Below, piece by piece: positions 8,413-15,571 of a DNA stretch of 64,000 nucleotides. The translations under genes and the position numbers were made by a program. The notes under the pieces were generated by a model. The model made no database searches. It worked only from the letters and a program-made list of their open reading frames with translations, and was not told the origin of the DNA. Within the stretch, counting starts at the first letter, position 1. Each line of letters starts with the position of its first letter. The DNA comes from Folioceros fuciformis. Taxonomy: Eukaryota. The stretch lies in the NCBI GenBank assembly GCA_049999805.1, contig JBNGIO010006265.1, positions 115,161 through 179,160 of the forward strand, given 5' to 3'.

Positions 8413-8512
8413 NNNNNNNNNNNNNNNNNNNNNNNNNNNNNNNNNNNNNNNNNNNNNNNNNNNNNNNNNNNNNNNNNNNNNNNNNNNNNNNNNNNNNNNN
8501 NNNNNNNNNNNN
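8413..8512. other. Assembly gap (100 N)
   Basis: Run of N. Confidence 1.
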
Positions 8513-8883: not shown

Positions 8884-11126
8884 ATGCATATGGCTTTCCG
8901 AGCTCCAGGATTCTTTGCGGATTTCAACTTCCCGGAGAAGTTGGTTCCCAGTTATGAGCGGACTCTGCTGGTGACGTCACTCATGGGCCTGTGGCAGGCA
9001 TTCTCCATTTTGATCTTGGTGGCGGTTGTCGGCGGCTTGCTGCTGGCTCAGCTGCAGAGATGGTTGCAGAGGTACCTGACGCAGGAAAGCGATCCTGGCG
9101 CCAGTCTGGAATGTGCATCGGAAAGCGCTGCCGCTGGTGGTGCTGGTGGCGAGACTGAGGGTGTGGTTTCGGCCCGCGCATTCTCGGCTGGAGCTGGAGC
9201 TGGAGTGGTGCCGGCTGCAAGGGAGGATGACGCTGCTTTTTCCAACGATGGGGTGTATGACGAAGACGGGCTGCTAGGAGGGCTCTGGAATTTGAATTCG
9301 GCGTTGCACTTTGGGCAAGACTATGAGTGGATCTACAAACTTTCAGAGGCGAATCTTGAACTGGGGGATGCGAGTCTGGCATCTCTGTACGCGCAGGCTA
9401 GCAGTCTTTTAGCCGAGCTTTACGCGCGTCTTCTGTTGAAGTATTCGCAGTTCACTGCTGCGGATGAATGTGAGGCTGGAGGGTCTGTAGGGAGCGGTGA
9501 GGACGATGAAGAGGAAAGCTTTCGCAATCCTCGCTGTTGCGGATCGGCCACCTGCGTTTGCTTCAGCGCGGATTCCTGCGATGGAATGCGCGGTAACTTG
9601 CCGACAAGGAGGAGGAAAGCAATGCAGCAGCTGCAAACTGGTGAGAGGATGGAGGACGAGGGCGAGGAAATCGCGTCCATCGAGGCAGATGAAGTGAGCC
9701 CTAATGTTGAATGGGGCCTCCGGAAGAAGGATTTGATTGCTGAGGAGAATAGGCGGCTGGACCTGAGCCGTGGATTCTCCTTCTCAGCTGCAGGTCTACT
9801 GTTCCCCTACTATCTAGGGGTGGCGCATTGCCTGAAAGAGCATGACTTCCTGAAGGTTAGGCACCTTGCCTTCCTGCTGAATTTGGTCCTGTCTGTGAGT
9901 CAATTGGAGTGTCGAAGGGTTTGTTTTGGAGCATGCAGCATGACCGGGATGAGCGACAAGGTATCATTCGTGTTGTTGTTTGTCGTAGGAAGATACTCCG
10001 CTTGCGGGTTCATCAGCCGGCGCCCTTGTGTGTGCTGTTGTTGCGGGGGGTGTGAATATGCGGGATTCGTTGGAGGCCACGAAGGAACTGGGGAGAGAGT
10101 GTCGGGAAGGTGGAACAGCCTTCAAACTCGGGGTATAGATCATCACCTTCTTGTGCAATAAGCTGGTAGTATAAAAATTGCATCTGCTCTTACTCATATG
10201 TCTACCTCATTCTGTTCCATGCAGGCAGTTTTGAGGCGCTTCTTGGATAGGTTCCTACCAGTGGATGCCCATCTGAGAGCGAATGGTCGAATTAGAGGCA
10301 CGTTCACACATCCATAGAGCCACGATTGATCTAGGAGTTCTTGTGTGAAAGGTTCCTTGAAGGGCACTAAGTGGATGATCTCAGCATTACAGTCTGTTAG
10401 GCTGATGGGAATCTTTTGCTGGTTGGGTTTTGCAGTGTCCATCACACAGGTCTTTGGATCACCGAAAGGCCTACTCGTGGATCAGTTTGATTCCAAGGAA
10501 GATCTTTTGGACGCTCTGCTGGCTTCCTGTCACATTCCGTTGTATGTTGCCGCAGGCTCAAACTTCGATTGGATTCCAAACCTTTTCGTTTCCTGTATTC
10601 TGACCCACGATCCGGTGTTTCAGATATTTTGCATCTTGGCCTGTTACACTCTTTAGAAATCGCATCTGTTTGGATGGAGGATTAGCATTTTTCGCGCCAC
10701 CGACAGCAGCCAATCATACAGTAAGCGCTTGCTCATGGAAGTAACAACCAAGTGAAACTGCGCCCTCTCCCGGCTTATGTGCTGCTTGCTGCAATCGTCT
10801 GCAGGTCAGAGTGTGTCCCTTCCCAGGACTAAGATTTGGGAGTTTTGGCATCAGCCCTGATTGTAATCCTTCATTGAAGAGGCCCAACCTGTTCCAGGTA
10901 CACTCGAAAACACACAAAGTTTGAAGCGGAATCGTGCTTGTAGCTGTCCTAAAACGCCTTGTGTTTTTTTTCCGGACAGCTTGTGAGGTGGATGTTGGTA
11001 CCCGCAGAAGACCACCATATGGAGGAGCTTTTTGACCTAGGCTTCCAGGATGCTTTAGGTTGGTGCCGTAAGCATTCACGGTGCAGAACGGATGGTACCC
11101 AACGGAAAAAGAAGAAGCAGCTATAA
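8884..11126 (+). CDS. Patatin-like phospholipase, about 7 exons, with a hydrophobic N-terminal segment
   Basis: GFSFSAAGLLFPYYLGV, lipase motif GSSAG (DTPLAGSSAGAL), DALLASCHIP, catalytic DGG (RICLDGGLA). Last exon ends KKKKQL* at 11126. Confidence 0.88.
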
Positions 11127-11434
11127 CATCAACTAGTGTAGATAATCAATTCATCTGCTGCCGAAGTCCAGCCAGGATCTGGCTGGGTGGCACATTGATT
11201 CCCTGCCATGGTCTAAAATCGCCACGTCTCTGTACAATAAACGCTGGAAGCAGAAGTGTTTGAAAAGGTGTATCCTAGTAACGAGGTTCGGAACTACAGA
11301 CATACTGTACTTGGTTTCTGTATACCAAATCAGATCATATTCTCTCCACTCGGTTTCTCACCTCCACCCTGATTGTGTGCGTTGATGCTGGCTGTCAAGT
11401 ATTGCCTCCTGTGTGGAACATGTCGTAGGAAGTT

Positions 11435-14400
11435 ATGGCCGTGCGCTTGGTGAATTCCGTTCACCCGCTTACAGACTTGGGTACTTCGACCAAGGATTCG
11501 AAATCAAAGACTGAGCAGCGACCGTGGATCCGTGTCGACTCCACAGGCCCCCTACTCGCAGCTTCGTCTGTAGGGATCGGCATCAGCCAGGAAGCTTTGG
11601 AGAGAGCGAGGCTGGAGCTGTTATGGCAGGACCTGTTTTCTGATCCTCGACACTGGTGGGACAATAGGCAGGGCAAGAGAAGCGTCCGCGACCCTGACTT
11701 CCGGCACAAGAGGTCCAAGGAGGGCCTGTTTGTGGACAACAAATGCAAGCCTGCGTGGGTGGAGTCGCAGCTAGCGGCGTGGGATGCTCAGCTGGACTGC
11801 ATTTCAGGAAATGGCGGCAATGCACAAGCTGGATGCTGGAGCAACGTGTGGGAGCCAGCACAGCTCAGTGAAACAGTTCACTCCCTGGATGTCTTGGTGG
11901 AAGGAGGGTGCCATGTTGACACCTCTTGCGTCTACCGCGTGCTTAGAAGGTGCATGGCCGAGAAGAACTTAGCCTTGGGCATGCGTGTGCATGACATAAT
12001 TCGCAAGAGTGGGTATGAGTCGGATACGTTTTTGGCCAACCATGTCATCCGTATGTATGCTTCTCACAAGAGGTTGCAGGAGGCACTGCAAGTGTTTGAG
12101 AACGTGCCCACTCCGGACGCCTTTATGTGGTGTGCCATCATCAAGGCCCATGTAGAGAGTGCGCGGCCTACGCAGGCTATGGAGTTCTATAGGCAGATGC
12201 GTGAGTCGACTGTCAAGCCGGATGTATACATCGTCCCAGCTGTTCTCACAGCTTGTGCCAGTGCAGGAGATTTGGCTTTCGGGAGGGGAGTGCATGCCGA
12301 TGTTGTGGGGACTGCGGTTGAACAGAATGTGGTTGTGGGCAACTGCTTGGTAGACATGTATGCCAAATGTGGGAGCTTGGCAGATGCTCGGAAAGTTTTT
12401 GACAGATTGCGAGCAAAAGATGTCGTGACATGGACGGTCATGATCAGAGGATATGTACAGCATAGCCGAGGTGGCGAAGCTATTTCTCTGTATAGAAGTA
12501 TGGAGAAGGAGGGCATCGCTGTGGCAGACCATGTTACGTTTGTATGCCTCCTGAAAGCGTGTACAGACATTGGAGCTTTCCATGAGGGGAAGAATCTGCA
12601 TTCTGAGATTCGAAAAAGGGGACTTGAAGCTGATGTGGTCCTTGGGAACTGCTTGGTGGATATGTATGCGAAATGTGGGAGTTTGGGGGATGCTCGCAGG
12701 GTATTTGACACGTTGCCCAAAAGAGACGTGGTCTCATGGACTGCCATGATTGCTGGATACGCTCAGCATGGTCTCGGTCAAGAAGCTCTCACTTTGTATG
12801 CAAGTATGCAGCGTGAGGGCTTGACTGCTGCAAATCATGTCACATTCGTGTGCCTCCTGAAAGCCTGTATGAGCATTCGGGATGTAGAGGAAGGGAAGGA
12901 GATCCACAGACACATACAGCGGCGAGGGCTGGAAGCTGATGTGGTTATTGGCAGCTGCCTGGTGGACATGTATGCCAAATGTGGGAGCTTGGAGGATGCA
13001 CGCAGGTTATTTGATAGCTTGTCCACCAAGAACGTGGTCACTTGGAATGCTATGCTCTCAGGATATGTGGAGCATGGGCTCGGTCAAGAAGCCCTTTCTC
13101 TTTACTCGATTATGCAGCAGAGTGGCCTGACACCTGACTACGTCACCTTTGTTTCCCTCCTGCAAGCATGCGCCAGCATTGGAGCATTGGATCAGGGGAA
13201 GCAGTTTCACTCTGAAATCCTAGATTTAGGGCTACAAGATGACGTGGTTGTGGGCAATTGCCTGGTGGCTATGTACTCCAATTGTGGGAGCTTGGAGGAT
13301 GCAAGGGGAGTGTTTGACACGTTGGCAGCAAAAGATGTGATCACATGGACATCCATAATCGCTGGATACGCAAAATATGGGAATCTAATGGAAGCCCGCA
13401 GAATGTTCGACAGCTTGGAGACAAAAAATGTCGTGACATGGAATGCGATGATATCAGGATATGTCCAGCATGATCTTGCTCTAGACGCTCTGGCTCTTTT
13501 TGCAACTATGCAACAGGAAGGCATTACTCCAGCTAGTCATGTTACTTTTGTATGCCTCCTTCAGGCCTGTGCCAGTGTCGGAGCTTTGCATCAGGGCAAG
13601 CAGTTGCATACTCAGATTCGAGAACAAGGACTGGAAGCTGATTTGGTTCTTAGTAACTGCTTGGTGGACATGTACTCTAAATGTGCTAGCATAGACGATG
13701 CTCGAGGAGTGTTTGACACATTGCCCGTTAAAGATGTGGTGACCTGGACTGCGATGCTCAATGGGTATGCCAGACATGGTGATGGCCGCATGGCAATCAA
13801 ATGTTTTAAGGAGATGCAGCAGGAAGGTATCGAGCCTGATGGGGATACTTTTAGTTGTCTTCTCGTTGCCTGCTGTCACAACGGCCTTGTGAATGAGGGC
13901 CAGCAGTATTTGAAAACAATGGTGGACGACCATGGCATTACTCCCTGTGATTATCACTACACCTCCATGGTTGATCTTCTTGGGCGGTCTGGCCGTCTAG
14001 ATGAGGCAGAAGATATCTTGCTAACAAAACCATTCAAGAACGATGTTGTAGCGTGGACTTCTTTGCTGAGTGCGTGCAAAAGCCATGGGGATGTTGAGCG
14101 AGGGCAGAGATGTTTTGACCGTCTTACTACAGTGGACCCTCAAAACGCATCTGCGTACGTTCTCCTGAGCAGCATCTTCGCAAATGCTGGAAGCTGGGGG
14201 AAAGTAGACGAGATAGAGGAGATGAGACGTTCTGCAGGAGCTTGGAAGAAGCCTGCAAAGGCCTGTATTGAAGTGAAGAACCAGGTGCGTGAGTTCATCG
14301 TGGGAGAAAGTGAGGACGACCTTTCGTTGAAGTCGAGAAAGCTCACCTCGATAGTGAAAAACGAAGGAGGCCACATTCCACACACGGATTTGATACATAG

Positions 14401-14650
14401 GGCAATGTCTCTCAGTGAGAAGGAGGATGCTTTGTGTGGCCATGCTGAGAAACTGGCTTTGGCTTATGGGCTTCTCAACACTGCCGACGGCACAACTCTG
14501 CTTGTAACGAAGAATCTGCGGATGTGCGAAGACTGTCACAGTAGCACTAAGATTCTTTCACGCCTTGAGAAGCGAGAGATAGTAGTTAGAGATGCACACC
14601 GTGTACACCGTTTTCAAGATGGGTTGTGTTCTTGCGGGGATCGGCATTGA
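11435..14650 (+). CDS. PLS-class PPR protein with E1/E2 and DYW:KP (KPAxA, DRH-ending) domain; candidate organellar RNA-editing factor; N-terminal PDF motif
   Basis: Intronless 1071 aa ORF with about 21 P/L/S/SS motifs, WKKPAKA, HAEKLA, NLRMCEDCH and C-terminal CSCGDRH. Confidence 0.95.
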   Translation: MAVRLVNSVHPLTDLGTSTKDSKSKTEQRPWIRVDSTGPLLAASSVGIGISQEALERARLELLWQDLFSDPRHWWDNRQGKRSVRDPDFRHKRSKEGLFVDNKCKPAWVESQLAAWDAQLDCISGNGGNAQAGCWSNVWEPAQLSETVHSLDVLVEGGCHVDTSCVYRVLRRCMAEKNLALGMRVHDIIRKSGYESDTFLANHVIRMYASHKRLQEALQVFENVPTPDAFMWCAIIKAHVESARPTQAMEFYRQMRESTVKPDVYIVPAVLTACASAGDLAFGRGVHADVVGTAVEQNVVVGNCLVDMYAKCGSLADARKVFDRLRAKDVVTWTVMIRGYVQHSRGGEAISLYRSMEKEGIAVADHVTFVCLLKACTDIGAFHEGKNLHSEIRKRGLEADVVLGNCLVDMYAKCGSLGDARRVFDTLPKRDVVSWTAMIAGYAQHGLGQEALTLYASMQREGLTAANHVTFVCLLKACMSIRDVEEGKEIHRHIQRRGLEADVVIGSCLVDMYAKCGSLEDARRLFDSLSTKNVVTWNAMLSGYVEHGLGQEALSLYSIMQQSGLTPDYVTFVSLLQACASIGALDQGKQFHSEILDLGLQDDVVVGNCLVAMYSNCGSLEDARGVFDTLAAKDVITWTSIIAGYAKYGNLMEARRMFDSLETKNVVTWNAMISGYVQHDLALDALALFATMQQEGITPASHVTFVCLLQACASVGALHQGKQLHTQIREQGLEADLVLSNCLVDMYSKCASIDDARGVFDTLPVKDVVTWTAMLNGYARHGDGRMAIKCFKEMQQEGIEPDGDTFSCLLVACCHNGLVNEGQQYLKTMVDDHGITPCDYHYTSMVDLLGRSGRLDEAEDILLTKPFKNDVVAWTSLLSACKSHGDVERGQRCFDRLTTVDPQNASAYVLLSSIFANAGSWGKVDEIEEMRRSAGAWKKPAKACIEVKNQVREFIVGESEDDLSLKSRKLTSIVKNEGGHIPHTDLIHRAMSLSEKEDALCGHAEKLALAYGLLNTADGTTLLVTKNLRMCEDCHSSTKILSRLEKREIVVRDAHRVHRFQDGLCSCGDRH

Positions 14651-14820: not shown

Positions 14821-15407
14821 TCATCTGAACGACTTTGAAACAGGGCCACGAGACAATCCCAGCCGCACTTCCATCCCGTGATGCAAATCAGCCGACACGA
14901 ACGATTCGGAGTCTCGCGGATCTGCAGACACGAGGAGGAGCTCATCAGACAACATACCCTAATCAAGTGTTAAAACTTCAGGTGTGCTCCGGCACACTGT
15001 GCTGACCATTCAGATAGTCTTCAAAACCGAAGCTCTCCAAGGTCCTGTTGTAGGAGTCCAAGCCAAGCATGGAGGAAGGCACCAAACCCGGTGGTCGCTG
15101 CACGCTGCACACCCCAACACTCTATCAGTCTCCGCAACACAAAGAGCAAAGTCCTAGCTGACGGGGGAGCTCGTTACCGAGACAGAATTTGCTGCTCAAT
15201 GTCCATCTTTGTGACAAAAGCCGACCCCTGCAGGTGTCTTAACATGTTTTTCCTAGTGTCCTCCTGCAACTTCTGATGCGTGCGCTGCACGGTCTCGGCA
15301 GCATGCCTCGGCAATGCATCTTGTTTCAGAGCAGGCAAACCAAATCGGAGAGAGTCGTGCGCCCCAAGCACATCATGCGGCAAAGATGTTCCCTCCTCCA
15401 TGTCCAT
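14821..15407 (-). CDS. UMP1: Proteasome maturation factor UMP1/POMP homolog, 3 exons
   Basis: HDSLRFGL...LRHLQGSAFVTKMDIEQQILSR | QRPPGLVPSSMLGLDS...FGFEDYLN | DPRDSESF...HHGMEVRLGL, with stop at 14821. Confidence 0.88.
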
Positions 15408-15571
15408 GACGAAACCGCTTAGAGGGTGGAGCAGAACCCTCGGCCAGTCAAGCAAACCTCACTCCGCAGAGTGTGAGCAAGTTCTATAGCATTTGAGGTG
15501 GAACTTGTGTCGAGTTCATCGTTATCCACTTTTACATTTATATATTTCAATATAAATGAAGACTTGCATAC

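Follow-up and report, generated by a model that had tools for sequence, protein, structure and literature searches.

We find that a 64,000-nucleotide stretch of DNA from Folioceros fuciformis (contig JBNGIO010006265.1, positions 115,161 to 179,160 of the forward strand; called the window here, with all positions counted from its first letter) encodes a pentatricopeptide repeat (PPR) protein of the RNA-editing type that carries the PDF motif of the organellar OSB proteins at its N terminus. This motif is described in passages of PMC6963530 and PMC4166229 as about 50 residues with a conserved Pro-Asp-Phe. Our results confirm that the fusion is real, expressed, and ancient.

A PDF motif at the head of an editing-type PPR protein

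The main open reading frame (ORF) extends from 11435 to 14650 on the plus strand and encodes 1,071 amino acids without an interruption or intron; a stop codon lies in frame two codons 5′ of the ATG at 11435. The core of the PDF motif, residues 63 to 109 of the ORF translation (LWQDLFSD...KPAWV), is encoded at 11621-11761 on the same strand. The original prediction had given this segment as 11621-11762, and its peptide and start were borne out, but the end lay one base beyond the last codon. The proposal that the motif is joined in frame to an editing PPR protein, here one with the PLS-E-DYW layout, was upheld, with one ORF spanning both parts and RNA that is colinear across the junction. The transcript evidence comes from run X3, which contains GT..AG joints in the upstream neighboring gene that are missing from the DNA run X1 and which is therefore RNA. 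An X3 contig covers 11337 to 12365 with no gap or joint and takes in a 98-nucleotide 5′ leader (11337 to 11434, plus strand), the ATG, the PDF domain, and the first PPRs, which means that the PDF motif belongs to the PPR mRNA. Neither an intron nor an upstream coding exon was seen in this contig, and one DNA contig is likewise colinear over 11337 to 12365. The depth of the X3 contig is lower than that of the upstream gene's, and further along, within the repeats, the contigs are broken. The leader holds two upstream ATGs, one at 11385 that opens an out-of-frame stretch of 22 codons ending at 11453 and overlapping the main ATG and one at 11420 with only 2 codons (ATG, one codon, and a stop), and the two might make initiation at the main ATG less efficient or subject to regulation. 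Reading of the translation, rather than a systematic scan, placed the next methionine in frame at about residue 174 in the first PPR region.

The identity of the motif rests on a phmmer search in which residues 51 to 120 (70 amino acids) were compared with 1.84e9 representative proteins. This gave 591 matches with an E value of ≤1e-3, of which 138 were at ≤1e-10 and 16 were at ≤1e-30, and many of the matched proteins are 330 to 500 residues long with 2 to 12 matched stretches each. One of them, P0008 from Amborella trichopoda, bears the NCBI name “protein OSB3, chloroplastic/mitochondrial” and was found at an E value of 4.9e-38 with 4 matched stretches. A profile of 17 motif copies retrieved 1005 proteins at E ≤1e-3, and proteins named OSB1, OSB2, OSB3, and OSB4 from many angiosperms were among the best 120 of these 1005 matches. 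A hidden Markov model (HMM) built from the phmmer matches gave the window motif 82.3 bits (E value of 7.7e-28). The Pfam threshold for SSB was passed upstream of the PDF copies in 4 of the 10 non-PPR matches scanned, with 2 more just below it, and this order of domains is the OSB architecture published in passages of PMC4166229 and PMC6963530. At the level of sequence, these searches confirm that the segment is a genuine PDF motif of OSB proteins, as had been predicted. A word-index search with the 70-residue motif as the single query returned 64 candidates, none of which scored; since phmmer and the profile search did find relatives, this null result marks a limit of sensitivity. A search of the ESM Atlas gave no usable match.

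The motif common to both contexts can be written W..(F)..P..WWDNR..K.....PDF(K/R)HK.....LW......P.WV, and the same positions are conserved in OSB and PPR proteins. The window copy has P87-D88-F89 as well as W64, W74, D76, R78, K81, K92, and P106, and its 47-residue core contains 11 lysines and arginines and 9 W, F, Y, or H residues. At the columns where one residue accounts for at least 80% of the copies in each of the two groups, PPR-linked and other, it agrees with the majority everywhere except at column 49, where W is replaced by F. The protein around the motif differs from OSB proteins, which have an SSB-like OB-fold domain followed by C-terminal PDF copies (passages of PMC4166229 and our Pfam scan). 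The window protein has no Pfam SSB domain N-terminal to the motif or elsewhere, and it carries its one PDF copy at the N-terminal end, ahead of the PPR-E-DYW part. Judged by this domain composition, it has the motif in common with OSB proteins without being one itself. The motif is present once in the window, with the next tblastn match at an E value of 0.11. No Pfam family matched residues 1 to 182 even at E ≤1; there is no Pfam model for the PDF motif, so ordinary domain annotation is blind to the PDF-PPR architecture. Other PDF architectures were also seen in angiosperm gene models, namely, P0040 (Coptis chinensis, 1526 amino acids), with a kinesin motor and three matched PDF stretches, the best of which is at residues 188 to 243; P0041 (Striga hermonthica, 1063 amino acids), named “Interactor of constitutive active ROPs 2,” with an SSB-like region and PDF copies; and P0002 (Kingdonia uniflora, 1160 amino acids), with 12 matched PDF stretches. 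Fused gene models may account for some of them.

All parts of the protein are encoded on the plus strand. Residues 1 to 50 (11435 to 11584) are predicted to be disordered and are followed by the PDF domain, residues 51 to 120 (11585 to 11794), as delimited by the matches to named OSB proteins, the HMM match, and the AlphaFold2 model. A flexible linker (residues 121 to 141; 11795 to 11857) leads to the PLS-type PPR array (residues 144 to 883; 11864 to 14083), a solenoid of helix pairs beginning at H144 that is matched by Pfam PPR_2 (E value of 3.9e-108) and PPR (E value of 3.7e-103), with 13 PPR stretches in all. The E motif (residues 884 to 945; 14084 to 14269; PF20431, E value of 1.1e-11) is followed by a DYW deaminase-like domain of the KP type at 14243 to 14647 (PF14432, E value of 8e-33, residues 979 to 1069). 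In the sequence of this last part, we find the KP box KKPAKACIEV (residues 938 to 947; 14246-14275), HAE within HAEKLA (residues 1003 to 1005; 14441-14449), CEDCH (residues 1031 to 1035; 14525-14539), and the C terminus ...CSCGDRH, with the stop codon at 14648-14650.

The protein thus has the PPR array, the E motif, and the DYW domain with HxE and CxxC zinc ligands that define a PLS-class PPR-DYW editing factor. According to passages of PMC9478123, DYW:KP proteins, which are confined to hornworts, lycophytes, and ferns, are marked by KP in place of PG and HAE in place of HSE and have a link to U-to-C editing; the hornwort variants DRH and GRP are named after their last three residues, and U-to-C activity has so far been demonstrated only for synthetic consensus KP proteins. 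The window protein has KP for PG in the first box, HAE for HSE, and DRH as its last three residues, a combination that identifies the gene as a hornwort-type DRH DYW:KP factor, and its product is a candidate U-to-C editor. These features also point to a hornwort as the source of the DNA. It is like the hornwort DYW:KP DRH proteins of Gerke 2020 and Gutmann 2020, as cited in PMC9478123, in its PLS array, E motif, KP, HAE, and DRH but differs in the N-terminal PDF motif, which goes unmentioned in the passages of PMC9478123 on these proteins. The highest identity to any homologue retrieved with the protein was 56%.

The PDF domain is predicted to fold on its own. AlphaFold2 modeled the 70-residue segment, with 17 aligned copies, at a predicted local distance difference test score (pLDDT) of 87.9 and a predicted template modeling score of 0.72, as a helix (2-19), three short strands, and a second helix (57-69). 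The same elements recur in a full-length model from 24 sequences (pLDDT of 82.2), where the PDF domain scores 70 to 89 per 10-residue block, residues 1 to 50 and 121 to 141 fall below 50, and the PPR solenoid begins at residue 144. A confident fold flanked by disordered stretches suggests an independent module on a flexible tether of about 20 residues, with a disordered leader as long as a presequence ahead of it, and the models thus predict an independent helix-sheet-helix unit. Searches for solved structures related to the motif model gave none that was convincing (best Foldseek E value, 5.7; best VIA-align Z score, 4.3), a null result that does not establish a new fold. The order of helices and strands brought a double-stranded RNA-binding domain to mind, and this idea was dropped since no such entry was among the matches listed.

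Distribution and conservation of the fusion

The window gene does not stand alone. Among 371 retrieved proteins, which are a biased sample, 271 have a PDF copy, 178 have PPRs, and 80 have both. Sixteen of the best 150 phmmer matches also match the PPR tract of the window protein, and Pfam confirmed PPRs in all 8 that were scanned. The 80 proteins with both parts carry one PDF copy in 40 cases, two in 33, and three in 7, with a median of 46 residues ahead of the first copy, and in 79 of them, all copies are N-terminal of the PPRs. The remaining protein, P0183 from Diphasiastrum complanatum (1362 amino acids), has an extra internal copy at residues 675 to 738, past its first PPRs, and could stem from a tandem gene fusion or from misjoining of the gene model. 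This lycophyte contributes 32 different PDF-PPR locus tags among the best 120 of the 1005 profile matches, and further PDF-PPR proteins come from the ferns Adiantum capillus-veneris and Pteridium aquilinum, the mosses Sphagnum compactum, S. fallax, and S. balticum, and the liverwort Calypogeia fissa. In several of the Diphasiastrum proteins, a match to GSHPx (PF00255) was rejected as spurious, as it falls inside the PPR tract (in P0260 at residues 386 to 456, with 28.5 bits and no stretch that passes alone).

None of the 35 seed-plant PPR proteins among the retrieved relatives (18 from Cryptomeria, 15 in Gb_ rows, 1 from Typha, and 1 from Reevesia) carries the motif, in agreement with the earlier statement that canonical angiosperm editing PPRs lack it, and there was no seed-plant row among the 33 PPR-type rows in the best 120 of the 1005 profile matches. 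This suggests that the fusion is absent from seed plants. Judged from the retrieved sequences, it is not peculiar to the window gene and is widespread in non-seed land plants.

A possible enrichment of the motif in KP-type over PG-type proteins had been put forward for checking, and no tie to the KP type emerged. Twenty of the proteins with PDF and PPRs retain a DYW domain, and a KP-specific fusion was rejected because 17 of these show the canonical HSE site, with DYW as the C terminus in 16 and DSW in 1. The other three, namely, the window protein, P0338, and P0362, are of the HAE type with DRH or GRP ends. Only 3 of 13 HAE-type (KP-like) relatives have the PDF motif; the 10 without it include some from short contigs that are possibly incomplete. 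The PDF copies most like that of the window protein are those of P0338 (828 amino acids, an HAE-type PPR protein with an SDRH end) and P0070 (a fragment of 162 amino acids), which share with it a C-terminal helix containing ...(A/L)AMWD.... These two are probably orthologues or paralogues from related hornworts.

When 24 full-length PDF-PPR proteins, drawn from mosses, a liverwort, a lycophyte, a fern, and further sources, were aligned, the PDF motif came out as the most conserved stretch. It contains 10 of the 23 invariant columns, namely, those of W64, W74, D76, R78, K81, P87, D88, F89, K92, and P106 in the window protein. When 52 PPR-linked copies were compared with 384 other copies, the information per column agreed with an r of 0.87 and the same W, D, R, K, P-D-F, L-W, P, and W positions were conserved, which argues that the same surface is constrained in the OSB and PPR contexts. 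A tree of all 436 motif copies placed the PPR-linked ones in clusters, with 11 label changes compared to a shuffled mean of 49.8 and none of 500 shuffles as low, and the window copy belongs to a supported group that comprises ten PPR copies and one fragment. The tree rests on 63 columns and shows clustering rather than a resolved history; this clustering shows that the PPR-linked copies go back to what appear to be few origins followed by inheritance. By these comparisons, the fusion is old and conserved and is common to PPR proteins of liverworts, mosses, lycophytes, and ferns.

Possible roles of the PDF domain

We lean modestly towards a role in which the PDF domain would stay on the mature protein and assist the sequence-specific PPR array by binding single-stranded nucleic acid without sequence specificity of its own. 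The first approximately 50 residues would then serve as an organelle-targeting presequence. The N-terminal repeats of a PPR array bind RNA at its 5′ side, so an N-terminal PDF domain would adjoin the RNA 5′ of the editing cis-element. Its ligand could be either the RNA 5′ of the PPR footprint or nearby single-stranded DNA (ssDNA) of the nucleoid, and binding would increase affinity or local concentration or prevent the target from folding. The original prediction had likewise suggested that the motif may anchor the editor to nucleoid ssDNA or to R-loops or may serve as a cofactor built into it. What has been reported, and only for AtOSB1 and AtOSB2, is binding to ssDNA. Passages of PMC6963530, PMC4166229, and PMC6451138 describe the PDF motif of AtOSB1 as sufficient or responsible for this binding, with the OB fold being dispensable for it according to PMC6963530 and PMC6451138, and OSB2 is identified as pTAC9, a nucleoid component, in a passage of PMC10493611.

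Such a role would be comparable to that of the RRM fused to PPR4 or of the ORRM and MORF helpers of seed plants. PPR4, a P-type protein with an N-terminal RRM (described in part of PMC9459714), follows the same logic of a sequence-specific PPR array with a fused accessory module, while ORRM and MORF proteins (described in part of PMC13386178) supply the module in trans. In contrast to these systems, the module of the window protein is a PDF domain, which is unrelated to RRM or MORF and whose characterized ligand is ssDNA, and PPR4 is a splicing factor rather than an editing factor.

Several observations weigh against this role. OSB1 and OSB2 favor ssDNA over double-stranded DNA or RNA (passages of PMC4166229), which means that RNA is not the default ligand of the motif, and an ssDNA ligand would have no obvious role in RNA editing. 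The PDF motif is missing from 98 of the 178 retrieved PPR proteins and from 10 of the 13 HAE-type ones, and with so many relatives lacking it, it is not generally required for editing. Physcomitrium PPR56 edits in Escherichia coli when the cloned form keeps just 14 residues ahead of the first PPR (a passage of PMC10482289), although natural PPR56 may or may not carry a PDF motif. Residues 1 to 50 of the window protein are not obviously presequence-like, the F at column 49 replaces a W that is about 90% conserved, and since no solved structure resembles the model, the fold offers no functional hint.

A more far-reaching idea, which we consider rather unlikely, sees in the PDF-PPR fusion an ancestral device of land plants that would physically tie editing factors to the ssDNA of the transcribing or replicating nucleoid, the home of OSB2/pTAC9. 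Editing in bryophytes, lycophytes, and ferns would then be cotranscriptional, and the fusion would have been lost in seed plants once MORF-like helpers acting in trans took over. As a variant of this idea, the PDF domain may have taken RNA as its ligand once joined to PPRs, which would make it the first cis-acting helper domain of editing factors.

Nucleic acid contact could instead be indirect, with the PDF domain being a protein-protein module that docks the editor onto OSB or other PDF proteins of the nucleoid or that oligomerizes PPR proteins. AtOSB2 forms a tetramer (a passage of PMC6963530), the conserved surface of the PDF domain is rich in tryptophan, and the tandem arrays of 2 to 13 copies in non-PPR proteins and 1 to 3 copies in PPR proteins are what would be expected of an interaction or avidity module. 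However, the relevant passages of PMC6963530, PMC4166229, and PMC6451138 credit the motif with ssDNA binding and not with oligomerization, and the conservation of the same positions in OSB and PPR proteins fits one common activity, which has been measured as ssDNA binding. We regard such a docking or oligomerizing role as unlikely. A prediction of a two-copy complex of the motif scored 0.00, which speaks neither for nor against self-association.

It is also conceivable that the mature protein makes no use of the segment, either because it is cleaved off with the presequence or because it is a decaying relic of an old fusion. Its place near the N terminus, the many close relatives that lack it, and the single nonconsensus aromatic residue (W to F) of the window copy would fit this. 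Nevertheless, we judge it to be very improbable in view of the concentration of 10 of the 23 invariant columns of the 24 aligned proteins in the motif and of its confidently predicted fold. The median of 46 residues ahead of the motif leaves room for a separate presequence, leaders rich in R and S precede the motif in the bryophyte examples, and tandem arrays of as many as three copies take up about 250 residues, more than a presequence would occupy. That the fusion is an artefact of misassembly or of two adjacent genes read as one ORF can be practically dismissed: nothing was found in its favor beyond the end of the upstream transcript at 11319 being close to the start of the PPR transcript at 11337, whereas the single ORF has no stop between the motif and the PPRs, the RNA and DNA contigs are both colinear across 11337 to 12365, and 79 other retrieved proteins from at least five named species have the same architecture.

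Neighboring transcripts and significance

The upstream neighbor (8884 to 11319, plus strand) is a spliced gene whose RNA contig ends at 11319, 18 nucleotides short of the start of the PPR contig at 11337. It has GT..AG joints at 9853/9987, 10131/10224, 10541/10624, 10720/10805, and 10894/10977 and one AG..GC joint at 10295/10434, and a Pfam scan of its unspliced first ORF gave no match. Further upstream, a run of 100 N at 8413-8512 is an assembly gap. On the other side, at 14921 to 15422 on the minus strand, an RNA contig over the 3′ part of the PPR gene runs into CT..AC joints at 14921/15007 and 15104/15178; these correspond to minus-strand introns and thus to convergent genes with adjoining or overlapping 3′ ends.

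The PDF-PPR fusion is apparently undescribed in the literature that we searched. No paper linking the PDF motif or OSB with PPR, DYW, or PLS proteins was found in the full texts covered, with Zaegel 2006, Gerke 2020, Gutmann 2020, and supplements lying outside that scope. One paper in the full-text search holds both “PDF motif” and “pentatricopeptide,” the latter in connection with the mitochondrial RNA polymerase, and a search for N-terminal extensions or novel domains of lycophyte PLS or DYW proteins gave nothing relevant among the matches listed. A review of Physcomitrium PPR proteins (PMC9459714) names RRM, LAGLIDADG, SMR, NYN, CBS, and SAP, and not PDF, as extra domains in its passage on them, and the main text of a 2026 kingdom-wide survey of domain fusions in editing factors contains neither “OSB” nor “single-stranded.”

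PPR-DYW factors are among the most intensively studied proteins of plant organelles and are under development as programmable editors for C-to-U and U-to-C changes. It is routine to discard their N-terminal regions as “transit peptide,” for example, in assays of PPR56. Our findings now place in that region a conserved module that is predicted to be folded and that is homologous to an ssDNA-binding motif, and the module is found in dozens of editing-factor-like proteins from all non-seed land-plant lineages sampled. MORF proteins are confined to seed plants (a passage of PMC13386178), and the distribution of the PDF module in non-seed plants points to an overlooked accessory function where these helpers are missing. 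The PDF domain might also serve in designer editors.

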